Shown here: positions 4,967 through 59,525 of the stretch, piece after piece
Layout: each line of letters begins with the position of its first letter
Numbering within the stretch: position 1 is the stretch's first letter
Assembly: GCA_944386475.1 (NCBI GenBank)
Contig: CALXBH010000004.1
Span: forward strand, 1 to 64,000
DNA: 64,000 nucleotides
Reading direction: 5' to 3'
Source: an uncultured Clostridia bacterium
Lineage (GTDB): Bacteria; Bacillota; Clostridia; Oscillospirales; Ruminococcaceae
The notes under the pieces: model-generated
What the model was told of the DNA's origin: nothing
The model's input: only the letters and a program-made list of their open reading frames with translations
The model's database searches: none
Position numbers and translations under genes: made by a program

Positions 4967-6178
4967 TCATAAAACGTGGGAAGCTGTCTTACCGGCTTTT
5001 ACCGGGGTTAAGCTTTCAATAAATCGTTGGATTCGCTTGAGGGCTTCGTCCAGGTGCTTGAGGGAATAAGCATAAGACACCCGCACATGGCCTTCTCCGC
5101 TGGCGCCGAAGGCGGTACCCGGAATAACGGCTACCCGCTGGGCGTGGAGAAGCTGCTCACAGAACTCGTCCGAGGAAAGCCCCGTGCTTTTGATCGAGGG
5201 GAACACATAAAAGGCGCCCTCCGGTTCAAAGCAGGAAAGCCCCATCCGCCGGAATCCATCCACTAAAAAGCGGCGGCGGATATTGTATTCGTCCACCATC
5301 ATCTGGATGTCGTCGTCGCAGTTTTTAAGGGCCTGAATCGCCGCATACTGGCTGGTGGTGGGGGCGCACATAATGGCGTACTGATGGATTTTTAACATCT
5401 GCTGGATAATCGGCGCCGGTCCGGCGGCAAAGCCCAGCCGCCAGCCGGTCATGGCATAGGCTTTGGAAAAGCCGTTAATCACCACGCACCGCTCCCGCAT
5501 CCCGGGGAGGGAGGCGATGGATACATGCCGGCCGTTATAGGTAAGCTCCGCATAGATCTCGTCGGATAAAACCAGAATGTTGTGCTCCCGCAGCACCGCG
5601 GCTATTTCCTCCAGATCCTCCCGGCGCATGACCGCGCCGGTGGGGTTGTTGGGGTAAGGGAGGATTAAAAGTTTGGTGCGGTCGGTGATTTTTTCCCTTA
5701 GCTCCTGAGCGGTCAGGCGGAACTTGTTTTCCGCTTTGGTGGGGATAGCCACTGCTTTCCCGCCGCTTAAGGTGACGATGGGAGCATAGCAGACAAAGCA
5801 GGGCTCGGGGATTAATACCTCATCCCCATTGTCCAGCACCGTCCGAATGCATATATCGATGGCTTCGCTGCCGCCCACCGTGACCACCACTTCATCCTGG
5901 GGGTGGTATACAAGGCCAAACCTCCGGGCCATATAGTTTGTAATCTCCACCCTTAAATCTGCCAGCCCGGAGTTGGCGGAATACTGGGTTTTTCCCTGGG
6001 CCAAAGAGTCCATACCCGCCTTGCGGATCACCCAGGGGGTTTTAAAATCCGGCTCGCCGATCCCCAGGGAGATCACGCCTTCCATCTCGTTGGCGACGTC
6101 AAAATATCGCCGGATGCCGCTGGGCTTTATATCTTTTGCCTTTTTCGACAGGATCGAATCATAATCCACTGGGGTCAC
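4967..6178 (-). CDS. PLP-dependent aminotransferase class I/II (aspartate/alanine aminotransferase-like)
   Basis: The SGIRRYFD motif, NPTGAV and the PLP-lysine region SKAYAMTGWRLG. An adjacent Lrp/AsnC regulator suggests an AlaT/AlaR-type pair. Confidence 0.85.
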   Translation of the reverse strand: MTPVDYDSILSKKAKDIKPSGIRRYFDVANEMEGVISLGIGEPDFKTPWVIRKAGMDSLAQGKTQYSANSGLADLRVEITNYMARRFGLVYHPQDEVVVTVGGSEAIDICIRTVLDNGDEVLIPEPCFVCYAPIVTLSGGKAVAIPTKAENKFRLTAQELREKITDRTKLLILPYPNNPTGAVMRREDLEEIAAVLREHNILVLSDEIYAELTYNGRHVSIASLPGMRERCVVINGFSKAYAMTGWRLGFAAGPAPIIQQMLKIHQYAIMCAPTTSQYAAIQALKNCDDDIQMMVDEYNIRRRFLVDGFRRMGLSCFEPEGAFYVFPSIKSTGLSSDEFCEQLLHAQRVAVIPGTAFGASGEGHVRVSYAYSLKHLDEALKRIQRFIESLTPVKAGKTASHVL

Positions 6179-6654
6179 AGAAGTGTCACTCCTCTTTCGT
6201 CCTCCGGTTCGTCGTACATAATCACGCCGTTTTCTTTGTACCGGGATAAAATAAAATGGGTCGCCGTGCTGAGCACCGAGTCCAGAATGGCTAACCGGTG
6301 GGATACAAACATCGCTACATCCTTAAAGTCCTTGGCGGTTACCCGTACCGACAGATCATACCCGCCGGACATCAGATAAACGCTTTCTACCTCGTCGTAC
6401 ATCATAATGGTGCGGGCGATTTCCTCAAAGCCCAGGTTGCGCTTGGGCGTCACCTTCAGCTCAATAATGGCCGTCACATGCTCCGGCCGCAGCTTGTCGT
6501 AATTGACGAGCACCTGATAGCCTTTGATAATCCCCTCTTTTTCGTACTTCTCGATGCGTTCGGCCACGTCCTGCTCGGTGGTGCCCAGCATGGCGGCTAA
6601 ACGCTCGTTGGAAAAGCGGGCGTTTTCCTGCAACAGCTTTAACAGCTTATCCAT
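6175..6654 (-). CDS. Lrp/AsnC family transcriptional regulator
   Basis: 159 aa with an N-terminal HTH (LDKLLKLLQENARFSNERLAAMLG) and a C-terminal RAM/ACT-like domain. A 4-bp overlap with the downstream aminotransferase suggests an operon. Confidence 0.85.
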   Translation of the reverse strand: MDKLLKLLQENARFSNERLAAMLGTTEQDVAERIEKYEKEGIIKGYQVLVNYDKLRPEHVTAIIELKVTPKRNLGFEEIARTIMMYDEVESVYLMSGGYDLSVRVTAKDFKDVAMFVSHRLAILDSVLSTATHFILSRYKENGVIMYDEPEDERGVTLL

Positions 6655-6739: not shown

Positions 6740-7558
6740 TTACAGGGTGATAAAATGGGGCTTGCGGGCGGCAAAATAGGCCGCGTAAGAAAATCCGCAT
6801 TCTTTTAAAAGGGCGTAAGCCTCTATGACGCCCTTTCCCATGTCCCCGGTGCAGTGGGCGTCGGAACCAACGGTAATAATCTCGCCCCCCAGCTCCCGGT
6901 ACCGCATTAAATAGGGCTTGTGGGGCATGGTGAGCCCCAGCTTTTGCCGCAGGCCGGAGGTGTTTATTTCAATTCCCTTTCCGTTTTGGATGAGGGTTTT
7001 TAAAATTTCATCGATCAGATCCCCGTAGGGTGCCATGTCTACGGAAATGCCGTGCTCCCCGGTGATATACCGGAGGGGATAGGTCAAATGTCCCAGCACG
7101 TCCAGGCGGTTGTGGCGCACCATGGCGAGCATTTCGGTGTAGTATTCTAACAGCATCTGGGGAAGGTCAAGGGCCGGGTCGCTGTAGTCAGCGCACCAAA
7201 AGTCGTCCCGGTTCGCGCTGTTGTGCAGCGAGCCGATGACAAAATCGTATGCGTGGGCGTTTAAAATCTCGTCTGCAAACGCTGTGTCCTGCATAGCCTG
7301 CCCCAGCTCGATCCCCTTTAGAATGGTGAGCCCCGAAAATTCCCCGCAGCTTTGCAGCTCTTCCGCCGCGCGGAAGGAATCCCGGCAGCGGGCGCGGTAG
7401 CTATCCTTATCCGGGTCGTTTGCTTCGCAGTGGTCGGTAAGCGTCCAGACCGAAAGGCCGATGTTGGCCGCCTGCCGGGCCATCTTACTAGGATCATCCA
7501 CCCCGTCGGGGGAAAAGCGGCTGTGGGTGTGGACGTCCATGCGCAACTGTTTTTCCAT
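6740..7558 (-). CDS. PHP-domain phosphoesterase (histidinol-phosphatase HisJ family)
   Basis: N-terminal MDVHTHSRFSPDG metal-binding motif (H-x-H), further His/Asp ligands (TDH, GSDAH). Length of 272 aa. Confidence 0.7.
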   Translation of the reverse strand: MEKQLRMDVHTHSRFSPDGVDDPSKMARQAANIGLSVWTLTDHCEANDPDKDSYRARCRDSFRAAEELQSCGEFSGLTILKGIELGQAMQDTAFADEILNAHAYDFVIGSLHNSANRDDFWCADYSDPALDLPQMLLEYYTEMLAMVRHNRLDVLGHLTYPLRYITGEHGISVDMAPYGDLIDEILKTLIQNGKGIEINTSGLRQKLGLTMPHKPYLMRYRELGGEIITVGSDAHCTGDMGKGVIEAYALLKECGFSYAAYFAARKPHFITL

Positions 7559-48989: not shown

Positions 48990-49034
48990 AAAAAACAGTT
49001 GCCGCCCATTTAATATGGGCGGCAACTGTTTTTT
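48990..49034. terminator. Bidirectional terminator (REP-like GC palindrome) between DUF1015 gene and anti-sigma gene
   Basis: AAAAAACAGTTGCCGCCCA-tttaatat-GGGCGGCAACTGTTTTTT. A related palindrome is reused at 54076-54122. Confidence 0.6.
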
Positions 49035-50154
49035 ACTGATAAGCGGCAAAAATCGCGTCAAATGTTTCCCCTGGCATCTTGACATAATACCAGTTCAGAT
49101 GATAATACCCCACATAGCCGCCTTCAAACAGCTGCAGCATCACCTGCGTGCCGTCCTTCATAGTCAGGTACAAAGGGGGCTGGTAGCGGTAGCTCTGGTA
49201 AAAGTCCGGGTCGTCCGCGAGGGTATCATAGGTATATTCGAACGGAGCATTATATAATTCCTCGATAAAATCATTTATCTGCTGATCGGTGACACCGGAA
49301 AGTTCCCGAAAGTCTATGCCATAAGAATCATCACTCCAGCTTTCGTAGGTCTGGCATCTTGCAGAGGCCCAGTTATCTTTTATATGCAGCCGGTCGCCGA
49401 ACAGATCTTTTCCGGTGCTGAGCTCAATGTCGTTGAGGCGCTCAAAAAACAGGATCTCTTTGACTGTACCGCCGCTTTCATTCGTATGCTTCTCCACCAG
49501 GCAAAGGCGGAAGCCTATGTCATACCCCTTGACGGAATAGACATCTCCGGTGTTCGTGGAGGCAAATTCTGTGTCATAGTCCTCCCGGGTGGACCATTCG
49601 TCGATGCTGTCGGTGGCGTGGCCCAGATAGTCGCCTACTAGGTCTTCAATCGCTTCTGCGTCGGTGTCGTAGTAGACCTGGGCCTGGGAATAGATGTGGC
49701 CATTATAGACGATCAGCCCTCTCATAGCATATGAAGAGGGATTAAAGTCTTCCGGCAGCTCGATGGCGGGAACATAAAGGGTACCGCCTAGGTTGTTTTG
49801 GTCGAAGGTACTGCCGCTGTTTACCTCATTGTTATTTCCAGCGGGAGGGTCGACGGTGTCTAGGTTATCATCCTTAGAGTTGCTTTCGCTGGCAGGCTCA
49901 CTGCTGTTTCCGGCAGAGGAGGAGGGATTTAAAAGGGTATCGGTTGGCGGGTTAGGCTGCTCCCTGCCGGGAGAAATAAGGGAACGCAGCGGGGTAAAGG
50001 GGAGCACGGCCAGAAGGGCCAGGCAGGCGGCGCAGGCGGCGATTTTTGACCATATCCGCAAAGGACGCCGCTGATTTTTCTGAAAAGCTTCCGCTTCGTC
50101 TATATAGTTGTCGTTAATGCCGCCGATGCAGTGGGCTAAACGGTCTTGTTTCAT
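49033..50154 (-). CDS. Membrane-anchored anti-sigma factor (cognate to the upstream ECF sigma)
   Basis: 4-bp overlap with the sigma gene. N-terminal cytoplasmic segment, a single TM (IAACAACLALLAVLPF) and a large extracytoplasmic domain. Confidence 0.6.
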   Translation of the reverse strand: MKQDRLAHCIGGINDNYIDEAEAFQKNQRRPLRIWSKIAACAACLALLAVLPFTPLRSLISPGREQPNPPTDTLLNPSSSAGNSSEPASESNSKDDNLDTVDPPAGNNNEVNSGSTFDQNNLGGTLYVPAIELPEDFNPSSYAMRGLIVYNGHIYSQAQVYYDTDAEAIEDLVGDYLGHATDSIDEWSTREDYDTEFASTNTGDVYSVKGYDIGFRLCLVEKHTNESGGTVKEILFFERLNDIELSTGKDLFGDRLHIKDNWASARCQTYESWSDDSYGIDFRELSGVTDQQINDFIEELYNAPFEYTYDTLADDPDFYQSYRYQPPLYLTMKDGTQVMLQLFEGGYVGYYHLNWYYVKMPGETFDAIFAAYQ

Positions 50155-50711
50155 AGGGCGATCTCCTCCGATTCCAGGTGCTTTTTAAGGCTTTCCCGCA
50201 GGCGTCTTAAAAGCGAATTGGTTTTGCTTACCGACCATCCCATCCGGACAGAGAGGTCTTTTAAGCTGTCAAAATACCAGTAGCGGCGGACAAAGGCCAC
50301 CCGCTGCTGCTTGGGGAGGGTGTCAAGCCATCGGTTTAACGACTGGGTGATCTCCTGATCCTCCAGCTCTTTTTCCGGTGTGGATAAGTCCGGCAGGCAG
50401 CCTTCCAGCTCGTCAAGGACCACGCAAGCGCTTTTGCCGCCCCGTTTTTCCCGGGACAGGTCCCGCAGGCGGTTAAGCGCCAGATTCCGGGTGATCCGGC
50501 AGATAAACGCCTTAAGCGATGCTGGACGCTGGGGAGGAATGGCTTTCCAGCCCCGCAGCCAGGTGTCGTTTAAACATTCCTCACTGCTGCCGCTGTCCTC
50601 CAGAATGCGCAGGGCGATGCTGCGGCAGATCCCGCCGTATTTTTGTTCGGTCTGGCGGATGGCGCTTTCATCCCGCTGCCAGAATAGCTCGATGATTTTT
50701 TCGTCCTCCAT
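50151..50711 (-). CDS. ECF-type RNA polymerase sigma-70 factor
   Basis: Region 2 (FICRITRNLALNRLRD) and region 4 HTH (LPKQQRVAFVRRYWYFDSLKDLSVRMGWSVSKTNSLLRRLR). Start at MEDEKII with a GGAGGAGG RBS. The tracked ORF extends to 50798. Confidence 0.8.
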   Translation of the reverse strand: MEDEKIIELFWQRDESAIRQTEQKYGGICRSIALRILEDSGSSEECLNDTWLRGWKAIPPQRPASLKAFICRITRNLALNRLRDLSREKRGGKSACVVLDELEGCLPDLSTPEKELEDQEITQSLNRWLDTLPKQQRVAFVRRYWYFDSLKDLSVRMGWSVSKTNSLLRRLRESLKKHLESEEIAL

Positions 50712-50843
50712 AAGGTTTCCTCCTCCCCCAAAGGCCTTTTCACTTATATAGACCCCCAAAAACGGAAAACTGTTCACCGGTAATCCTATTTGTACCATAT
50801 GATGATTTATTAGCTATTGAAAGCCAACATGGAACGCTTGGAT

Positions 50844-51018: not shown

Positions 51019-51224
51019 CAAATCTATTGTACCATAAAATAGGATTACCGGCCTTTTCTTCATGCTTTTTAGTTTAAAAAACAGGAACCCCAAAAAGCTT
51101 TTCTCCATAGGATAGGGTAAACACAGTTAAAATGAATCTGCGAGCGCCCTTTGCCGGATGGGAGCGCGTCCTTTTCTAACAGGGCAAAGGGCCTTTGACT
51201 ATATACCTTTGGGGGAAATTTTTT

Positions 51225-52103
51225 ATGAACACGCAAAAAACCTTTTTTGTGGCGGGAGGCGATCTGCGGCAGGCCTTTGTAGCGGGGCATCTGACCCGGG
51301 ACTACACCGTTTATGCCCTGGGCTTTGACAACAATGTGGAGCTCCCAGGCGGGGTGATCCCCATCGAGTCGGTGTGCGAGCTTCACGCGCCGCCGGATTA
51401 CATCCTTTTTCCTATCCCTGCCACCAACGACGGCGAGCATGTGAACATGCCCCTTTCCCATAAACATACAAAACTCAAAGACGTTTTGGAAGCCGCCGGG
51501 CCGGATACGGTGGTGTTCGCCGGAAAAGCCGGCGGCGCCTTGGCGGCCATGTGCCATTTGCAGGGGCTTCCTCTGATCGATTATATGGAGCGGGAGGAAC
51601 TGGCTGTGCTAAACGCCGTCCCCACCGCCGAGGGCGCTGTCCAGATCGCTATGGAGGAAATGCCCACCACGTTATTTAGACAAAAATGCCTGATTACCGG
51701 CTGCGGCCGGATCGCCAAGGCACTGATCCGTGTTTTAAGCGGGTTTGGGATGGATGTCACCATTGCCGCCCGCAAATACGGGGATTTAGCCTGGGCCAAG
51801 GTGTACGGCTGTCACGGGCTTCCCATCCGGGAGCTTGCAACCCGGGCGGGAGAGTTCGATTTGATTTTAAATACCGTCCCGGCGATTTTGTTCGGCCAAA
51901 AGGTCCTTAAACAGCTGAAACCGGGCTGCCTGCTCATCGACCTGGCCTCCAAGCCGGGGGGAGTGGACTTCACCATGGCGAAAGAGCTGGGTGTGAAGGT
52001 TATCTGGGCGCTGTCCCTGCCCGGGAAAGTGGCGCCTGTGACCGCCGGAGAAATTATCAGTAACACCATCGGCAACATCATGGAGGAAAGGGGAATCGGG
52101 TAA
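51225..52103 (+). CDS. dpaA: Dipicolinate synthase subunit A
   Basis: Rossmann motif ITGCGRIAKAL and overall similarity to the SpoVFA family. Followed within 2 nt by dpaB. Confidence 0.85.
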   Translation: MNTQKTFFVAGGDLRQAFVAGHLTRDYTVYALGFDNNVELPGGVIPIESVCELHAPPDYILFPIPATNDGEHVNMPLSHKHTKLKDVLEAAGPDTVVFAGKAGGALAAMCHLQGLPLIDYMEREELAVLNAVPTAEGAVQIAMEEMPTTLFRQKCLITGCGRIAKALIRVLSGFGMDVTIAARKYGDLAWAKVYGCHGLPIRELATRAGEFDLILNTVPAILFGQKVLKQLKPGCLLIDLASKPGGVDFTMAKELGVKVIWALSLPGKVAPVTAGEIISNTIGNIMEERGIG

Positions 52104-52104
52104 T

Positions 52105-52683
52105 ATGAAACAGGTAAAAGTGGGGTTTGCCCTGTGCGGGTCGTTTTGCACCTTCCAGGCGGTGATCCAACAGATGGAAACGCTGATTGCCGAAGGGTAT
52201 GAGCTTTTTCCCATCATGTCCGACAACGCCTACCGGTTGGATACCCGCTTTGGCAAAGCAGAGGATTTCGTCGCCACGGTGGAAACCATTTGCAGCCGGC
52301 GGATTATCCACACCATCCCGCAGGCGGAGCCTATCGGCCCGCAAAAGATGTTCGATGTGCTGGTGGTGGCCCCCTGCACCGGGAATACTTTGGCAAAACT
52401 TGCAAACTCTATTGTGGATACGCCGGTAACCATGGCGGTGAAATCCCACCTGCGAAACGGCCGCCCGGTGGTGATCGCCGTTTCCACCAACGACGCGTTG
52501 TCCGGCTGCGCCCAGAATATCGGCAAGCTGCTTAACAAAAAGCATTTCTATTTTGTCCCCATGCGGCAGGATAACTGTGAGAAAAAACCCGCCTCGATTG
52601 TGGCGGATTTTACCCGGATCGGCCCCGCTGTTGACGCCGCGCTGGAAGGCCGGCAGCTTCAGCCGCTGTTGTGTACACAATAG
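52105..52683 (+). CDS. dpaB: Dipicolinate synthase subunit B (flavoprotein)
   Basis: KVGFALCGSFCTF N-terminus and VVAPCTGNTLAKLANSI, typical of SpoVFB/HFCD-family flavoproteins. Length of 192 aa. Confidence 0.85.
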   Translation: MKQVKVGFALCGSFCTFQAVIQQMETLIAEGYELFPIMSDNAYRLDTRFGKAEDFVATVETICSRRIIHTIPQAEPIGPQKMFDVLVVAPCTGNTLAKLANSIVDTPVTMAVKSHLRNGRPVVIAVSTNDALSGCAQNIGKLLNKKHFYFVPMRQDNCEKKPASIVADFTRIGPAVDAALEGRQLQPLLCTQ

Positions 52684-52816
52684 GGCAAAAATCTTATCAG
52701 AATTTACACATATTAACAATATGTTCATTGTATTAACGAACTAATTCCTGTAAACTAGTCTTAGAATAAAATGGCGCGGGAATTTCCGGCGTGGGATGTG
52801 TAAAGGAGCTGTTAGC

Positions 52817-54046
52817 ATGGATCAATTCGGAATCAGTAAACTGGACTTAAAACGGCGCAATCGGATGCAGATTTTAAAACTTCTGCGCCAAAAAGGACCG
52901 ACCTCCCGGATTGATATCTCGGCAGCGCTGGAATTGACCCGGGCGGCGGTGACCATTATCACCAACGAGATGATCGAACAGGGCATCATCTACGAAAAAG
53001 GGGAGGCAAACCCCTTGGGGCAAAAAGCCGCCCGCGGCCGCAAAAAGATCTTACTGGATATTAACAGCAATTATAAATTCGCCTTCGGCGTGGTGGTGGA
53101 TGTGGGCTGCATCAGCGTGGGGCTGTCCAATATAAGCGGCGAGGTGCTGGACAAGCAGTTTTACACCCTTTCGATCGAGGAAAAACGGCCGGAGGTTGTG
53201 CGCAAAATCTGCGAGATCGTCACCCGGATTAAGGACAACAACTGCCTGGACAGCGACGCCATCCTGGGACTGGGGCTGTGCATCTCCGAAAACGAGTACA
53301 GCCGGATGCAGGTGGCGGTGGAGCATTATGTGCCCGATTTGTCCGGCTTGAAAAACGAGCTGGAAAACGAGCTTTCGGTTCCCGTCACGGTCTGCGAGAC
53401 GGTTAAGGCCCTGGCGCTGGCGGAAATCGACTTTAACTTTAAAGGCCAGGTAAAACCCCGCAACATGGTGTTTATCCGCTATGGGGAGGAAATCGACGCG
53501 GCGGTGGTGCTGCAAAACCGCATCTATGCCGGAACCAACAACCGCTCCGCCCGGTTTGGGCACCTGATCGTCAACCCCCAGGGCAGAGAATGCGCCTGCG
53601 GGCGGATAGGATGCGCTGTCACCGAAATTTCCCGCACCGTGCTTCTGCACAAGGTGCGGCAGGTGTACTCCCAGGAAAACACCCCCGCTTTGTACGAGGC
53701 TACCGGCGGCAATCCGGAGAATATCGGCGTGCTGCTGCAAAACGTTTCCTTACAGTTTGCCGACCGGGCGATATCCGATATCTTTAAGGGCGCGGCGGAA
53801 TATTTTGCCATCGCGGTGGTGAATATGGTCACCATGTTCGATCCCGAAAAGGTGGTCTTTTTCGGGGATATCTGCTTAAACCAGGCGTTTTTAGAGTATG
53901 CTAAAAGCCGGATGTCCTATCTTGCCCATTACCGCTATTCCGACCTGACGGTGGAAAGCGCCTTTAACCAAAAGATGATCTATCTGGCCGGCTGCGCGGT
54001 GGCCATCCGGGAATTTTTCATTGAAAGAGGCGGCTTTGTCCGGTAA
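52817..54046 (+). CDS. ROK family transcriptional regulator (NagC/XylR-like)
   Basis: N-terminal winged HTH (MQILKLLRQKGPTSRIDISAALELTRAAVTIITNEMIEQGII). ROK sugar-kinase-like domain with Zn motif CACGRIGC. Start at MDQFGIS with an AAAGGAG RBS. Confidence 0.8.
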   Translation: MDQFGISKLDLKRRNRMQILKLLRQKGPTSRIDISAALELTRAAVTIITNEMIEQGIIYEKGEANPLGQKAARGRKKILLDINSNYKFAFGVVVDVGCISVGLSNISGEVLDKQFYTLSIEEKRPEVVRKICEIVTRIKDNNCLDSDAILGLGLCISENEYSRMQVAVEHYVPDLSGLKNELENELSVPVTVCETVKALALAEIDFNFKGQVKPRNMVFIRYGEEIDAAVVLQNRIYAGTNNRSARFGHLIVNPQGRECACGRIGCAVTEISRTVLLHKVRQVYSQENTPALYEATGGNPENIGVLLQNVSLQFADRAISDIFKGAAEYFAIAVVNMVTMFDPEKVVFFGDICLNQAFLEYAKSRMSYLAHYRYSDLTVESAFNQKMIYLAGCAVAIREFFIERGGFVR

Positions 54047-54075
54047 CCAGGCCGCCGGCAAAAGAAAAAGCCGTT

Positions 54076-54122
54076 AAAAAACCACTTGCCGCCCGTGCTG
54101 AATGGGCGGCAAGTGGTTTTTT
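54076..54122 (+). terminator. Rho-independent terminator after the ROK gene (REP-like palindrome related to 48990-49034)
   Basis: AAAAAACCACTTGCCGCCC-gtgctgaat-GGGCGGCAAGTGGTTTTTT. Confidence 0.6.
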
Positions 54123-54694
54123 AAGAGGCTGCCAGGCAAACGTATGGCAGTACCCCCCTTTTTTACGGCTAGAAGCCCGAAAGATGCGATTCCTGTGTGA
54201 AACGCATCTTTCGGGCTTCTCAGAAATGGAATGTCAAAACTGCTGGCCGTTTTTTCTCTTTAGGCCGGCAGTTGTGCGGGTGCTAACAGGCGAAACACCC
54301 GCTGTAGACAGGAGGCCATCAAAACTTATCTGTGGACGCGTTTCTTTTTCCATACTCCCCAATTTTGCGGATCAGGGCCGTTGGCCACACCGCCGTTCGC
54401 GGTTTTGCGGCAGCACCCTGGCGGAACTTTCGTTGTTCCTATAGGCAATCCCCAGGCGCCCACGCCAACAGTTTGGTGGCGGTACAGGTGTTTATTTTTC
54501 TTTCTCTAAAAACCTGTACACCCCTTATAACTCATTTAAGAGGGGTTTTGTGACAAAAAAGTCGAACTTTGTAATAAAACACAAATTGTTAACAGATTTC
54601 TTGTGAAACTGCACAATAAATAAGCAGGCCCCGCTGGGTTTTCCAAGCGGGGCCTGCATGAAACGAAAAAGACTAAAAACGAAAATATTTAAAT

Positions 54695-54797
54695 CGCCAA
54701 AACCGGCGACAGGTGCGTCGGTTTTGGCATACAACAAATCCCGCGATTGCGGGATTTGTTGGGGGAATGATTAGAAGGGGGGCTTGCCCCTCTTCTA
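54695..54797 (+). repeat. Structured intergenic repeat, copy B (compact version)
   Basis: CGCCAAAACCGGCGACAGGTGCG...AATCCCGCGATTGCGGGATTT...GTTGGGGGAATGATTAGAAGGGGGGcttgCCCCTCTTCTA. Same termini as copy A. Confidence 0.4.
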
Positions 54798-54882
54798 GGC
54801 TGTCGACTTTGTCCACAAGCCCAAACGGGGAAGGCCCCGCTTGGCCGGTGTGTTTTACCTGCTTGTTTACCGGCTGTTTTGA

Positions 54883-55323
54883 TTATTCGCTGAATACAAG
54901 CTCGCCTGTGTAAACAGTGGGCCGTTCCACCACGGTGCCCGAACCGTTGTAGATGGCGAATTCCACCTCGGCCCGGTAGGTGCCGTTTCCATCATTCATA
55001 AAGGGAAACTGTTTGTTGATAACCTGGCCCTGAATCAGCTCGTCGGCGGATTCTACCTCGTTCCACCACCACAAAAACTTTTTCTGAAGCTTCACCCGGA
55101 CCCACACCATGGTGACGTCGCTGGTGCCTCTAAAGTCTGCATGGCAGTAAATGCCGATTCCATCTTCGGTGAGGTAAGCGTTTACCTGAGTGGCGTGCTC
55201 ATAAAAGGGCACGACCTCGTACGCCTCGTCGGTGGAAACCTCCGGCTCCTGGGCGCTGGCCGCCAGGGGGACGGTGAACAGCATCACGCAGCACAACAAC
55301 ACGCTGACGAATTTTTTAAACAT
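54883..55323 (-). CDS. Small secreted hypothetical protein (signal peptide, ~145 aa)
   Basis: MFKKFVSVLLCCVMLFTVPLAASA signal peptide with an AxA cleavage site. Last gene of a co-oriented block: SipW-like, sigma, anti-sigma, this gene. Confidence 0.5.
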   Translation of the reverse strand: MFKKFVSVLLCCVMLFTVPLAASAQEPEVSTDEAYEVVPFYEHATQVNAYLTEDGIGIYCHADFRGTSDVTMVWVRVKLQKKFLWWWNEVESADELIQGQVINKQFPFMNDGNGTYRAEVEFAIYNGSGTVVERPTVYTGELVFSE

Positions 55324-55607
55324 AACACATACAACCTTCCTCAAAAATTTTTGGCAGATTTTGTTTCCTGCCGCCTCTATAAACCGCATTTTCCCCCTGG
55401 TTGTGACAAAAATCGTGGACATTTTGACAGTTTCGGCAGGTCAAAAAACCTTCGTCCGGTTTTGGAACGGGATTTTACATACCCTGCAAAACACCCTGCA
55501 CCCTGTTTAAAACGTAAAATTCCCGCCCAGGCCTGCCGGCCGGGCGGGAATTTTAGAAATGGATATAGAAATGGAAATAAACGCACACAAGCAAAACAGA
55601 AAGGGCG

Positions 55608-56363
55608 TCAGGGCTGGGGCGTCAGGGAAGAAACCACCTTTAACACCTCGTCAAACTGGTCTTCCGCCACCGGGACGTGCAACGTAAACACATAGGTGCC
55701 GGTGTTCCAGTAAAGGTGATAGGCGTTTTTGTTGTAATAATAAAAGCCGTCGGCCCCGTCAATGTCAATAGGGAGGATGTACAAGGCGTCCTCCGTGTCA
55801 ATATGCCATCGTGTGCTTGGGTTTAGCACACGCTGTTCGTAGGATATATACTGCCCGTCGTCGTTGTAATAATCGATAAACCGGTCCTGAGGAGTATCCA
55901 ATTTGGTTTCCGCGCGGTTATATCCTTCGGGGAAATAGGTGGGGACATAATACTGTTCGATTTCCTCAAGAAGAGGCTTCCCTGCATCCTCCTTGTTTTG
56001 GGAGAAAATCACTAAAGAGTACTCAGGACGGGTGGATATCGTGTATCTTAAATCGGTATTGTGCCCGGCGCTTACTCCAAACAGCGCGGTAACCGTGACC
56101 GTGGCCACCAGCGCCGCCACAGCCACCCGCCGGCCCCAGATGTGGGTCACCGGCCGGGACTGGGATTTGGCTTTGGCCTTGGGCAGATGTTTCATCATAT
56201 GCTCCATCCGGCGGTTAAAGCGCTTGGTAAAGTTGTAGGCGCGCTTTAACTCTTCTTCCTTGGGGAGGGCGGCAAGGGCTTCTTGTTCATATAATTCCAG
56301 CGCCTGGCGCAGCTTATCGGGCGGCGGCGGACTGGGGCTTTTGAAAATCTGGATCGTTGGCAT
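55608..56363 (-). CDS. Membrane-anchored putative anti-sigma factor (single TM, extracytoplasmic domain)
   Basis: Overlaps the 3' end of the upstream sigma gene. Cytoplasmic N-terminus, TM (VAVAALVATVTVTALFGV), then an extracellular domain. Start uncertain. Confidence 0.5.
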   Translation of the reverse strand: MPTIQIFKSPSPPPPDKLRQALELYEQEALAALPKEEELKRAYNFTKRFNRRMEHMMKHLPKAKAKSQSRPVTHIWGRRVAVAALVATVTVTALFGVSAGHNTDLRYTISTRPEYSLVIFSQNKEDAGKPLLEEIEQYYVPTYFPEGYNRAETKLDTPQDRFIDYYNDDGQYISYEQRVLNPSTRWHIDTEDALYILPIDIDGADGFYYYNKNAYHLYWNTGTYVFTLHVPVAEDQFDEVLKVVSSLTPQP

Positions 56364-56922
56364 GTTCGGAATCCTCCTCCTTTAAAAGTTCGATGAGCTT
56401 GAGTCTGCCGCGCTCCACTCTTTTTCTTACCGTGGGGCCGGTCAGCTTCAGCATGCTCGCGACCTCTTTATCCGAGAGGCCGTGCACAAAACGCAGCACC
56501 AGAACATCCCGATAGATTTCGGGCAGGAGCTTAATTTTCTCCACAATCACCTTAACGCTCATCCGGTCGATGACCTCCGCTTCCGGAAGAAGAGAGGCGT
56601 TGTCGGGTAAAGGGAACTCATCCTCGTCGTCAATACCGGCGGGGATTGCTTCTTTTTTACGTTCCATATACATGCGCTTTGCAACGTTTCCACTTACTAC
56701 AACCAAAAAAGCTTTGGTTTTGTGACAGAAAACGTCATCGATTTTGTACAAATGAGGAATTATTTTTAAAAAAGATTCCTGAACAGCGTCTTCCGCCATG
56801 CCGTCGTCCTTTAAAATCTGTTTTGCGGTGAAAAACATCGTACTGGCATAGGTCTCGTACAACAGGCGGAATTTTTCATTGTCCTCTTGGGATTCGGTTG
56901 GGATAGAGCAAAAAGCAAGCAC
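56314..56922 (-). CDS. RNA polymerase sigma-70 family factor (ECF-like, regions 2 and 4)
   Basis: Region 2 (DAVQESFLKII) and region 4 HTH (YRDVLVLRFVHGLSDKEVASMLKLTGPTVRKRVERGRLKL). GTG start with GGAGG 7 nt upstream. Confidence 0.75.
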   Translation of the reverse strand: MLAFCSIPTESQEDNEKFRLLYETYASTMFFTAKQILKDDGMAEDAVQESFLKIIPHLYKIDDVFCHKTKAFLVVVSGNVAKRMYMERKKEAIPAGIDDEDEFPLPDNASLLPEAEVIDRMSVKVIVEKIKLLPEIYRDVLVLRFVHGLSDKEVASMLKLTGPTVRKRVERGRLKLIELLKEEDSEHANDPDFQKPQSAAAR

Positions 56923-57016
56923 AAAGTTTCCTCCAATGTCAATTTTCTCTTTCTATGTTGTTTGGACGATGAGCTTGATTTTCTGTTATAATGGGGGATA
57001 AGGCGACACAGCCGTT

Positions 57017-57763
57017 TTACGAGGGATTGCCGTTTTCCAGAGGGATCTCCCCGGCGAAGGGATCTTCTGCTTGGGGGCCGTCCTGGGAAAGGGCGTCCGG
57101 GAGGTCTTCTTTGGGGTGGGTGCTTTTTTCAAACACCACATCCTGCTCCCGGGAGACCAGCTGTTCCAAAGGGAGAAGGGCGTCCTCAGGAGGAGACGCA
57201 GCCGGGGCAGGGGTTCTCTGCCGCCAAAGCAGCACAATACAGCCGGCCAGCAAAGCCGCCAGCACCAGATAAAACACGATCATACACACCGTGCGGTGGG
57301 CGTAGAAAAACAACAGGCAGCTCCCAATTTTGGAGGAAGAAAACACCGGCACCGACATATTTTTGATCTGGTCTTGTGTGATAAGGGAAACGGTTTCATC
57401 GCTGTCGTTTTCCATCGAAAAGGTAAAAGCCCCCTCCTCACCGGCGACGTTTACCACCCGCCGGGTCTGGGTGACAAGCTGTCCGCCCGGATATTCCAGA
57501 GTGTAGGTGATAAGCATCCCGTCTTTTACATCCTGGGGCTCGATGTTCTTGGCTAAAATAAACGAATGGTTTTTCATGGACGAGGTGATGCTGGGGTCGT
57601 CGGTCAAATACATCCGGTATCCCAAAATCACCGCGGTGCCGTGTTCCTGATTCCCGGTTGTAGCCACCAGTAAAAAAAGCACCGATCCTGCCAGCAGCAA
57701 CAGTGTCAGCAAAACCATCAAAACACATGCGGCAATGGATAAAATACGTTTAAACCTGTTCAT
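57017..57763 (-). CDS. SipW-like (archaeal/ER-type) signal peptidase I homolog with N- and C-terminal TM segments. The canonical catalytic His appears substituted.
   Basis: Topology (TM, beta-domain, TM) and blocks SSMKNHSFILAKNIEPQDVKDGMLITY...LVTQTRRVVNV align with the recalled B. subtilis SipW SGSMEP..GSLILVKEI..DVKxGDVITF...AVTHRIVDI. Ser is retained (TSSM). The His position reads TQTRR. Confidence 0.45.
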   Translation of the reverse strand: MNRFKRILSIAACVLMVLLTLLLLAGSVLFLLVATTGNQEHGTAVILGYRMYLTDDPSITSSMKNHSFILAKNIEPQDVKDGMLITYTLEYPGGQLVTQTRRVVNVAGEEGAFTFSMENDSDETVSLITQDQIKNMSVPVFSSSKIGSCLLFFYAHRTVCMIVFYLVLAALLAGCIVLLWRQRTPAPAASPPEDALLPLEQLVSREQDVVFEKSTHPKEDLPDALSQDGPQAEDPFAGEIPLENGNPS

Positions 57764-57922
57764 AGATGGATCCTTTGGGGGATCTAAGACACCTCCTGCC
57801 GGGACTTGTCCTGCGCCGAATTAACGTTTGCGCAACATTTTTATTATAACGTATTTTAAAACCCTTGACAAGGATGGGGAATGCCTCTTTCTTATACAAA
57901 AATGTGCATATAAGCTAAGGGG

Positions 57923-58441
57923 CTAAAACAGCAGCCGGACGGTCAAAGAGCTCATAAAAATCCCCACCAAATCGGCGATCAGGGCGCAGAAGATGGTATA
58001 GCGGGTGCGCTTTATGTTCACCGAGCCGTAATAGACCGCCACCGCGTAAAAAGTGGTCTCGGTGGAGCCCTGCATCACCCCGGCGATCCGGCCGATGGCG
58101 CTGTCGGGGCCATAAGCGGTCAACAGGTTTTCAAAGATCACCAGCGCCCCGCTGCCCGAGATGGGTCTAAGCAGCGCCAACGGCATCAGTTCCCCCGGGA
58201 CGCCTAAGGTGTTTGACAGGGGAGAGAGGGCGTGGGTAAGCACATCCAGCGCGCCGGAGGCCTTAAACATCCCCACAGCGGTCATCAGCCCCACCAGAGC
58301 GGGGAGGATTTTAACAGCGGAGGAAAGGCCCTCCTTGGCCCCGGCAATAAACTCATCGAACACATTGACGCCCCTGACCGCGCCGAACAACAAAATGCCG
58401 CCGATGATGACCGGCACAAAAAAGGCGGTTACCGTTTCCAT
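57923..58441 (-). CDS. spmB: Spore maturation protein B
   Basis: 172-aa nucleoside-recognition/Gate-domain membrane protein. 13-bp overlap with upstream spmA, as in the B. subtilis spmAB operon. Confidence 0.85.
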   Translation of the reverse strand: METVTAFFVPVIIGGILLFGAVRGVNVFDEFIAGAKEGLSSAVKILPALVGLMTAVGMFKASGALDVLTHALSPLSNTLGVPGELMPLALLRPISGSGALVIFENLLTAYGPDSAIGRIAGVMQGSTETTFYAVAVYYGSVNIKRTRYTIFCALIADLVGIFMSSLTVRLLF

Positions 58442-59049
58442 AGGCGTCCTCCTTTGTCCGGGCGGGTCCCATCCCCCGGGAACAGCCGCTCACAGATTTT
58501 GACCGCTAAAAGCCCGCAGCACAAAGACACCGCCGAGGTGATTAAAATGGCGGGCAGGATGTCTAAGGGCGCGGCGCTGCCGTGCTTTAGGCGCAGCGTG
58601 GCGATGGTGGTGGGAATCAGCTGCAGGGAGGCGGTGTTTAGCACCACAAAGGTAATCATATGCCGGGAGGCGGTATCACTGCCGCCGTTTTCTTTGCTGA
58701 GCTGCTGCATGGCGCGGATGCCCAAAGGGGTGGCGGCGTTGCCCAGCCCCAAAAGGTTGGCGGTAATGTTCATGGAAATAGCCTTGAGCGCCGGGGCGTC
58801 TTTGGGAAGCCCTTTAAACAGCACCCGGAGCACCGGGGAAAACAGCTTGGCAAGTCCCCGGGTGATGCCTGCCTTGTCTGCTACGTTCATCACGCCGCTC
58901 CACAGGCACATGGCCCCGGTGAGGGAGAGGACCAGTTCCACCGCCCCGGCGCAGGAGCTGATAGCCGCGTTGCTCACCTGGGGCATCCGGCCGTTTAACG
59001 CTCCAAACAGGACGGAGAGGACCACCATGCCGCAGAAAATCCATTTCAT
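58429..59049 (-). CDS. spmA: Spore maturation protein A
   Basis: 206-aa Gate-domain membrane protein (AISMNITANLLGLGNAATPLGIRAMQQL), paired with spmB. Confidence 0.85.
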   Translation of the reverse strand: MKWIFCGMVVLSVLFGALNGRMPQVSNAAISSCAGAVELVLSLTGAMCLWSGVMNVADKAGITRGLAKLFSPVLRVLFKGLPKDAPALKAISMNITANLLGLGNAATPLGIRAMQQLSKENGGSDTASRHMITFVVLNTASLQLIPTTIATLRLKHGSAAPLDILPAILITSAVSLCCGLLAVKICERLFPGDGTRPDKGGRLWKR

Positions 59050-59273: not shown

Positions 59274-59525
59274 ATGAAATCAACAGGAATTGTACGTCAA
59301 GTGGACAACTTAGGTCGGGTGGTGCTGCCGGTAGAACTGCGCAGGCACTTTGACATCAACGAAAAGGATTCGTTGGAGATCTATGTGGATGAGGAGCACA
59401 TCATCTTAAAGAAATACGCTCCCTCCTGCATCTTCTGCAACAATGCCAGTGGAACCACCTATTTCAAAGGGAAGATTGTGTGCTCCGAGTGCATTAAAGA
59501 GCTGGAAAAACAGTTTAATGACTAA
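59274..59525 (+). CDS. AbrB/MazE/SpoVT-family DNA-binding protein with C-terminal CxxC...CxxC zinc-ribbon
   Basis: The N-terminal MKSTGIVRQVDNLGRVVLPVELRRHFDINEKDSLEIYVDEEHIILKK is a swapped-hairpin AbrB-N domain. The C-terminal CIFCNN...CSEC adds four Cys. Strong RBS GGAGG. Confidence 0.6.
   Translation: MKSTGIVRQVDNLGRVVLPVELRRHFDINEKDSLEIYVDEEHIILKKYAPSCIFCNNASGTTYFKGKIVCSECIKELEKQFND

Follow-up and report, generated by a model that had tools for sequence, protein, structure and literature searches.

Four genes lie in tandem on the minus strand between positions 54883 and 57763 of a 64,000-nucleotide stretch of DNA from an uncultured Clostridia bacterium of the Ruminococcaceae (contig CALXBH010000004.1 of assembly GCA_944386475.1), the whole of which is referred to here as the window. 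They encode a SipW-like membrane protein, an extracytoplasmic function (ECF) sigma factor, a candidate membrane-bound anti-sigma factor, and a small secreted protein. We favor, with moderate confidence, the interpretation that the locus consists of two units lying side by side: a three-gene ECF cassette, made up of the last three of these genes and presumed to act in stress signaling, and an unrelated, degenerate homolog of signal peptidase.

Searches with the sigma factor yielded 77 homologs, six of which were examined in their gene context: P0161, P0180, P0167, P0195, and P0177 (43-47% identity) and P0201 (36%). Five of the lineages concerned (L011, L012/13, L014/15, L016, and L018) stand at 43-47% identity, whereas L017 is more distant, at 36%. 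In all six, an orthologous gene encoding a DUF4367 protein is found 3' of the sigma gene, and in three (L011, L014/L015, and L018) the gene for a homologous secreted protein of about 150 amino acids comes next; no SipW-like gene was found near the sigma cassette in any of the six. A metagenome scan with the sigma factor returned a single distant locus (24% identity), which was not used. The cassette appears to be found in many gut clostridia and, because it recurs without the SipW-like gene, we regard it as a probable conserved functional unit.

Conversely, relatives of the SipW-like protein occur in three genomes that have no sigma cassette. P0003 (L002) is encoded 3' of spmA-spmB with a ROK gene downstream, whereas P0059 (L004) and P0022 (L005) are each encoded immediately ahead of a ROK gene in convergent orientation, with dpaB and dpaA next in L005; in each case the flanks match those of the window (spmAB ... 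ROK-dpaBA). Apart from near-identical copies of the window's species (L006, L007), the complete four-gene block was found in Ca. Metaruminococcus caecorum (L001/L009) alone, and a genome scan with a two-member SipW-like alignment returned Ca. Metaruminococcus only. This organism is a close relative, with SpmA and SpmB 78% and 84% identical to those of the window. The block is thus kept in one close relative and split in more distant lineages, and the SipW-like gene appears to be a lineage-specific neighbor of the cassette rather than part of a conserved functional module.

Organization of the Locus

The features of the locus, read along the minus strand, are as follows.

57843..57871, minus strand: sigma-A-type promoter-like site TTGTCA-17-TATAAT, 5' of the SipW-like gene, with 11/12 consensus matches
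57017-57763, minus strand: SipW-like gene, 248 amino acids
56314-56922, minus strand: ECF-type sigma gene, 202 amino acids, GTG start
56697..56727, minus strand: promoter-motif copy inside the sigma open reading frame (ORF), TGTCACAAAACCAAAGCTTTTTTGGTTGTAG, at codons C66-H67-K68 ... V75-V76
55608-56363, minus strand: anti-sigma candidate gene, 251 amino acids
55508..55555, minus strand: intrinsic terminator 3' of the anti-sigma gene, with an 18-bp G+C-rich stem followed by a U-tract
55377..55408, minus strand: promoter motif TGTCACA-N19-TTATAG, 54 nt 5' of the small secreted-protein start
54883-55323, minus strand: small secreted-protein gene, 146 amino acids
54525..54555, minus strand: third promoter-motif copy, TGTCACAAAACCCCTCTTAAATGAGTTATAA, with the best position weight matrix (PWM) score in the window
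54090..54518, minus strand: orphan region of about 400 nt, 3' of the third motif copy, with no conserved ORF

An initial annotation of this DNA had recognized the four tandem minus-strand genes. All four ORFs are present, and the identities assigned to them (SipW-like, sigma/ECF-like, single-pass anti-sigma-like, and secreted with an AxA signal peptide) hold, except that the secreted protein has 146 rather than 145 amino acids. The junctions had been described as short or overlapping. This is true of the 94-nt gap between the SipW-like and sigma genes and of the 50-nt overlap between the sigma and anti-sigma genes, but not of the 284-nt gap between the anti-sigma gene and the small gene, which holds a terminator and a promoter-like motif of its own. 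Expression of the sigma gene probably depends on read-through from the sigma-A-type site at 57871-57843, so that one promoter would drive the SipW-like, sigma, and anti-sigma genes as a predicted co-transcript.

The cassette is situated between the SipW-like gene and a ROK gene (52796-54046); beyond them lie spmB (57923-58441) and spmA (58429-59049) on one side and dpaB and dpaA (51195-52683) on the other. G+C content over positions 54001-58000, which hold the cassette, is 0.50, compared with 0.53-0.55 in the flanks, a difference consistent with insertion of the cassette between the SipW-like gene and the ROK gene.

The initial annotation had proposed a single four-gene module. In such a module, true of this lineage at least, the SipW-like protein would serve as a non-catalytic chaperone or receptor for the small protein, much as Streptococcus pyogenes SipA does for pilins, or, through its cytoplasmic tail, as a partner or modulator of the anti-sigma factor. 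We consider this unlikely, although it survives better than the other alternatives discussed below. In its favor, the genes are adjacent and likely to be co-transcribed, with no terminator across the 94-nt and 44-nt gaps; the block is intact in Ca. Metaruminococcus even though both of its outer flanks (serC/serA upstream, the atp operon downstream) differ from those of the window; and the four proteins have diverged to a similar degree between the two organisms (35-49% identity). An inactive peptidase homolog, SipA, is among the structural matches of the SipW-like protein, and the regulatory role of Bacillus subtilis SipW depends on its cytoplasmic C terminus (PMC8767453). Set against this are the six lineages with the cassette and no SipW-like gene and the three genomes with a SipW-like clade member and no cassette. 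The tail motif of the SipW-like protein is kept in the cassette-free members of its clade and is therefore not cassette-specific, both block-bearing genomes are close relatives, so that shared ancestry suffices, and the ordinary AxA signal peptide of the small protein could be cleaved by any housekeeping peptidase.

The same annotation had likened the layout to the tapA-sipW-tasA operon, an analogy that the comparison does not bear out. Unlike that operon, the window has no TapA or TasA/camelysin gene adjacent to the SipW-like gene, and the secreted protein next to it is part of an ECF cassette that has no dedicated peptidase in other genomes. The small protein itself was considered as a TasA/camelysin (Peptidase_M73) or TapA-like protein and rejected as such, having no Pfam match and a generic Ig/FN3-like predicted fold.

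Several points nevertheless weigh against our reading of the locus as two units. The persistence of the SipW-like gene beside the cassette in Ca. Metaruminococcus, and the lack of a terminator between 57017 and 56922, at the junction of the SipW-like and sigma genes, are compatible with a lineage-specific functional coupling. The samples are small, with eight sigma loci examined and five members of the SipW-like clade compared. Residues 1-75 of the anti-sigma candidate, its cytoplasmic part, match no Pfam or NCBIfam model, including those of the zf-HC2/RsiW type. Promoter identity, co-transcription, and feedback, as set out below, are all read from sequence. Finally, the serine of the signal peptidase active site has an aligned counterpart in the SipW-like protein, a point taken up in the next section.

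A Degenerate Homolog of Signal Peptidase

The SipW-like protein is a remote yet genuine homolog of the SipW/Sec11-type (S26B-like) signal peptidases. It falls below the curated NCBIfam thresholds for this group, scoring 19.7 bits against TIGR02228 (cutoff 51.85) and 18.4 bits against the SipW model NF046067 (cutoff 190), and neither the Pfam S26/S24 models nor a direct sequence search of the Protein Data Bank (PDB) gave any match. A word-index search found only the protein itself and one relative, P0002 (47% identity). That the homology is real follows from profile matches and from the predicted fold. A profile built from the window protein and P0002 had 448 matches among 1.84 billion representatives, nearly all of them canonical SipW-type peptidases carrying the SGSMEP, THR, and GDN/GDA motifs, and a 32-sequence profile matched human SEC11A (E=3.9e-16).

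The AF2 model (predicted local distance difference test score [pLDDT] 82) has helices at residues 2-36 and 144-182 on either side of a beta core (49-143), with a tail that is disordered in part. This is the signal-peptidase I fold with an N-terminal anchor and a C-terminal transmembrane helix, and the topology is that of an N-terminal transmembrane helix, an extracytoplasmic beta domain, a second transmembrane helix, and a cytoplasmic tail. The best Foldseek matches in the PDB were human SEC11C and SEC11A (7p2p, 7p2q; target TM-scores 0.61/0.59), which also gave the best sequence match among solved structures; they were followed by SpsB and by Streptococcus pyogenes SipA, an inactive homolog, at rank 13.

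The triad of human SEC11A is Ser56-His96-Asp122, and its Asp116, part of the GDN motif, pairs with Arg97 (bioRxiv 10.1101/2020.11.11.378711). Both MAFFT and hmmalign align residues S58, R101, R102, D120, and S126 of the window protein to SEC11A S56, H96, R97, D116, and D122, respectively. The structural Arg-Asp pair is kept as R102-D120, but the triad corresponds to S58-R101-S126: the catalytic His column holds R101 (T100-R101-R102 vs T-H-R; Lys, Arg, Tyr, and Tyr in the relatives), and the triad Asp column, in box E, holds S126 (Tyr in P0002). S58 aligns without gaps to the catalytic serine in the context PSIT (DDPS58ITSSM), not SMEP, and elsewhere in the clade this position holds His, Asp, or Asn. 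Across the five members the Ser/His columns read S/R, S/K, H/R, D/Y, and N/Y, and the full triad is retained in none, a pattern that shows a relaxation of catalytic constraint across the clade. With Arg in place of the catalytic His and Ser in place of the triad Asp, the window protein is most likely a non-proteolytic pseudo-peptidase. The possibility of a pseudo-peptidase had been raised in the initial annotation from the loss of the His, which the alignment bears out while adding the loss of the Asp; the serine singled out there, within TSSM, lies four residues off the aligned S58.

An active, dedicated signal peptidase with a non-canonical base (Ser58 with Arg101, or Lys in the relative) is in our judgment improbable. 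Ser58 is kept, as are the Arg-Asp pair and the overall fold, and P0002 combines a serine in the context SMAP (compare SMEP) with Lys in the His column, recalling the Ser-Lys dyad used by P-type peptidases (PMC8767453; bioRxiv 10.1101/2020.11.11.378711); this leaves room for residual or altered catalysis in the clade. However, Arg, a poor general base, occupies the base position of the window protein, its serine lies in PSIT rather than SMxP, the triad Asp position is taken by Ser (Tyr in P0002), elsewhere in the clade the Ser column is filled by His, Asp, or Asn and the His column by Tyr, and the NCBIfam scores are far under the family cutoffs.

Bacterial precedents are available for a non-catalytic role. 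S. pyogenes SipA/LepA (PDB 4n31) is without catalytic residues and is essential for pilus polymerization. The window protein resembles it in having a signal-peptidase I fold minus the catalytic residues, so that SipA offers a precedent for a chaperone-like role without proteolysis; unlike SipA, which is P-type-derived and is encoded in a sortase/pilin locus, the window protein is of the ER/SipW type, with a second transmembrane helix and a tail motif. Its gene has spmA/spmB, the ECF cassette, ROK, and dpaAB as neighbors, and no sortase or pilin domains were found in the called genes of L002, L004, L005, and L006. Like B. subtilis SipW (ER-type, MEROPS S26B), it has N- and C-terminal transmembrane helices, an extracytoplasmic beta domain, and a cytoplasmic tail, and differs in having Arg for His, Ser for the triad Asp, and a score of 19.7 against the cutoff of 51.85 bits. 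The cytoplasmic tail of B. subtilis SipW has a regulatory function that is independent of catalysis (reviewed in PMC8767453).

All five clade members have in common a cytoplasmic motif, LExLVSxExDVVFEKS, after the second transmembrane helix. It reads LEQLVSREQDVVFEKS in the window protein (residues ~199-214), LEELVSLEQDVVFEKS in P0002, and IEELINIEKDIVFEKS in P0059, with weaker forms in P0003 and P0022. The clade is otherwise fast-evolving, with 47% identity between the window and Ca. Metaruminococcus caecorum, compared with 78% for SpmA and 84% for SpmB. The neighboring spmAB and dpaAB genes suggested a sporulation-type promoter for the SipW-like gene, but this was ruled out, as the upstream regions show sigma-A-type TATAAT boxes; a site of this type is also found 5' of the homologs in L001, L002, and L004.

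Other SipW-like proteins without the catalytic His were P0005, P0014, P0043, P0052, P0071, P0083, P0092, P0105, P0112, and P0116. P0004 (594 amino acids) has two tandem SipW-type domains, the first canonical (SGSMEP, VTHRIV) and the second with SMYP and an Asn in the His column; it appears to be a fusion of active and inactive peptidase domains.

The Sigma Factor and Its Candidate Anti-Sigma Factor

The sigma factor matches TIGR02937 (sigma70-ECF) with 65.5 bits (cutoff 42.9) and Sigma70_r4_2 with 41.3 bits (cutoff 25.7), and scores 23.7 bits against Sigma70_r2, slightly below the cutoff of 24. At these family thresholds it is of the ECF (group 4) type, with sigma-2 and sigma-4 domains alone, and it belongs to a clostridial family with the signature CHKTKxFxVIV.

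The start of the anti-sigma candidate gene overlaps the 3' end of the sigma gene by 50 nt and is preceded by a strong ribosome-binding site, AAGGAGGAGG. The protein has one hydrophobic span and a C-terminal, extracytoplasmic DUF4367 domain (56.2 bits, cutoff 22.1), which is LolA-like. Its N-terminal region is conserved among orthologs, with the motifs KLxQALxLY ... FSxxFxRKM. The candidate is assigned as an anti-sigma factor because of its position, topology, and synteny: a gene for a DUF4367 membrane protein overlaps or abuts the sigma gene in 8/8 loci examined. Between the anti-sigma gene and the small gene lies the terminator at 55555-55508 (minimum free energy -39 kcal/mol, z = -4.6), and an equivalent hairpin with a T-run is found 3' of the L001 anti-sigma gene.

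In most respects the cassette appears to be an ordinary ECF sigma/single-pass anti-sigma system, unusual in its DUF4367 sensor, its non-standard promoter motif, and its conserved secreted target. Like B. subtilis SigW-RsiW and SigV-RsiV and C. difficile CsfT/U/V, it combines a two-domain sigma factor with an overlapping downstream anti-sigma gene and a small local regulon. It departs from these Firmicute pairs in its sensor domain, in the motif (TGTCACAAA / GTTATAG vs the usual TGAAAC / CGTC), and in having a small secreted Ig/FN3-like protein as its conserved target. The literature located on DUF4367 mentions it only in an unrelated context, and no name for any of the four proteins was given by the sources searched.

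Copies of the cassette elsewhere adjoin defense- or mobile-type genes (L011 1233-3815, L014 7240-10555, L016 2867-3489 and 8266-8516), among them genes for TIR and SLFN/AlbA proteins, WYL-Cas3-Cas5d, and ParE/RelB with type I restriction HsdR, which suggests that the cassette may reside in variable genome islands. A defense role for the four proteins was ruled out in spite of these neighbors, PADLOC giving no match for any of them.

A Putative Promoter Motif Associated with the Cassette

Comparison of the window with L001 revealed the motif TGTCACA-N18/19-TTATAR (TGTCACAAA-N15-GTTATAG), of which the window has two exact pattern matches (55408-55377 and 54555-54525), with 0.01 expected in 64 kb. 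The first lies 5' of the small gene, and in L001/L009, L011, L014, and L018 the motif is found 30-61 nt 5' of the homologous small gene, as two boxes with a fixed spacing of 18-19 nt; the copy at 54525..54555 is conserved in L001/L009.

A PWM made from the intergenic sites alone detects a further copy inside the sigma ORF (ORF nucleotide 196) in every lineage of the CHKTKxFxVIV type except L016, where the TGTCACAAA box is kept and the -10 part has diverged to GTTATTA. In the window the -10 part of the internal copy is GTTGTAG. Beyond this copy and the intergenic pair, the PWM finds no further site in the 64-kb window. The internal copy is oriented towards the 3' part of the sigma gene and the anti-sigma gene. 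No copy was found 5' of the sigma gene itself in the window. In L017, whose sigma factor is without the CHKTK peptide, the motif (TGTCACAAAAACTTTTCCCGAAAGGTTATAT) stands 59 nt 5' of the sigma start, where ECF autoregulatory promoters are classically placed.

The codons for Cys-His-Lys, TGT-CAC-AAA, are the same in 7/7 lineages of a codon alignment. Of the other columns with an invariant, degenerately encoded residue, one of 25 is invariant in codon and 24 vary, and identical residues share their codon in 44% of pairwise comparisons over the seven lineages. Because of this synonymous-site constraint, the internal copy is likely to be more than a shadow of the CHKTK peptide.

From these observations we infer that the motif is the cognate promoter of this sigma family. 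It might instead be an operator for another regulator, or the internal copy a by-product of the CHKTK...VIV peptide, but we give this explanation little credence. Its strengths are that promoter function has been assigned purely from the DNA, that the motif is unlike the usual ECF AAC / CGT pattern, and that the internal copy coincides with a conserved stretch of the protein. It does not account well for the two-box layout with fixed 18-19 nt spacing at 30-61 nt from start codons, for a motif that accompanies the sigma gene across all lineages, lies 5' of sigma itself in L017, and is not found elsewhere in the 64-kb window, or for Cys-His-Lys codons that are invariant (7/7) when codon choice varies at other conserved residues.

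The Small Secreted Protein and an Orphan Region

The signal peptide of the small protein ends ASA|QE, of the AxA type. As the initial annotation had noted, the protein has no recognizable family, and neither it nor its homologs match any family in Pfam or NCBIfam. Its family has the motifs KLQKKxLWWW and GGTYR, which across lineages take the form L(Q/E)K(K/R)xL..W and GGTYR. A low-confidence model (core pLDDT ~70) is a generic all-beta Ig/FN3-like sandwich. Direct homology search with the small protein found only relatives of 84-99% identity, and a metagenome scan with the small-protein alignment found nothing. A predicted functional link between sigma factor, anti-sigma factor, and secreted protein is supported because they form a common cassette elsewhere and a conserved motif stands 5' of the secreted-protein gene.

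In L018, further small genes (5807-6199 and 7121-7513) follow that of the cassette secreted protein. One of them encodes a secreted protein of 130 amino acids that carries a signal peptide, a hint that several small proteins for export may belong to the sigma regulon.

The orphan region lies 3' of the third motif copy and has terminators on its flanks. No ORF is conserved there between the window and L009 (12838-13290), and Rfam gave no family, only sub-threshold hairpin matches. The region does show a patch of DNA conservation and strong folding (z = -5.9), including terminator hairpins, and it ends at hairpins and a bidirectional terminator held in common with the convergent ROK gene. It may be a candidate sigma-dependent small non-coding RNA or a decayed gene.

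Predicted Regulation

Our proposed account of the locus is as follows. Unit A would comprise the sigma, anti-sigma, and small secreted-protein genes together with the orphan region at 54090-54518. The membrane anti-sigma factor, with DUF4367 as its extracytoplasmic sensor, would keep the sigma factor inactive until an envelope signal frees it, presumably when the anti-sigma factor undergoes regulated proteolysis. The freed sigma factor would then transcribe from the three copies of TGTCACAAA-N15-GTTATAG: that of the small gene, that of the orphan transcript, and that within the sigma gene. The last of these would yield extra anti-sigma mRNA without extra full-length sigma factor, and hence negative feedback. 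Unit B would be the SipW-like gene, whose ancestral place we put between spmAB and ROK-dpaBA. The cassette would have landed directly 3' of it in the ancestor that this organism shares with Ca. Metaruminococcus caecorum, and the sigma-A-type promoter of Unit B probably serves the cassette as well. In this account the homologies, the assignment of residues, the synteny, the distribution of the motif, and the synonymous-site constraint are observations, whereas promoter function, co-transcription, the feedback loop, and the loss of catalysis are predictions drawn from them.

The predicted feedback has a parallel in Escherichia coli rpoE-rseABC, in which a second sigma-E promoter lies 5' of rseA (Rhodius et al. 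2006, PMC1312014). In both cases a sigma-dependent promoter, here a predicted one, would let the anti-sigma factor be transcribed apart from the sigma factor. Unlike rpoE, the CHKTK clade yielded no sigma-type motif 5' of the sigma gene, which implies feedback without positive autoregulation, and its motif is buried well within the sequence encoding sigma-2 (codons 66-76), under synonymous-site constraint. A promoter in this position would be a case of overlapping coding and regulatory information, giving feedback through the anti-sigma factor alone.

The compact cassette, a new and well-delimited member of the ECF family, comes with a predicted promoter, through which its regulon and the part played by DUF4367 in sensing are open to direct test. 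The triad-less clade of the SipW/Sec11 fold, with its conserved tail, would add to the few bacterial pseudo-signal-peptidases known and recalls the regulatory, non-catalytic part played by the tail of B. subtilis SipW. The locus does not overturn current views. The least likely of the ideas that we considered, and a very doubtful one, is that the SipW-like protein stands as the founding case of a pseudo-signal-peptidase clade, with its signal-peptide-binding groove retained for sensing and its tail (LExLVSxExDVVFEKS) used for signaling across the membrane, and that it has been wired in this lineage to the ECF pair; if true, secretion stress or a specific preprotein would be read out transcriptionally.

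Surroundings of the Locus

The window has a second ECF sigma gene (50151-50798, minus strand; TIGR02937, 66.4 bits), overlapped by 4 nt by the gene 3' of it (49033-50154, minus strand), which encodes a single-pass protein of 373 amino acids with no family match. The two are probably a further sigma/anti-sigma pair, with no sequence relationship to that described above.

The wider neighborhood is one of sporulation genes, with dpaA/dpaB (dipicolinate synthase) at 51195-52683 on the plus strand and spmA/spmB (spore maturation, Gate domains) at 57923-59049 on the minus strand. An AbrB/SpoVT-type regulator is encoded at 59274-59525 on the plus strand. The order spmAB ... ROK-dpaBA is conserved around the SipW-like clade members in L002, L004, L005, and L007.

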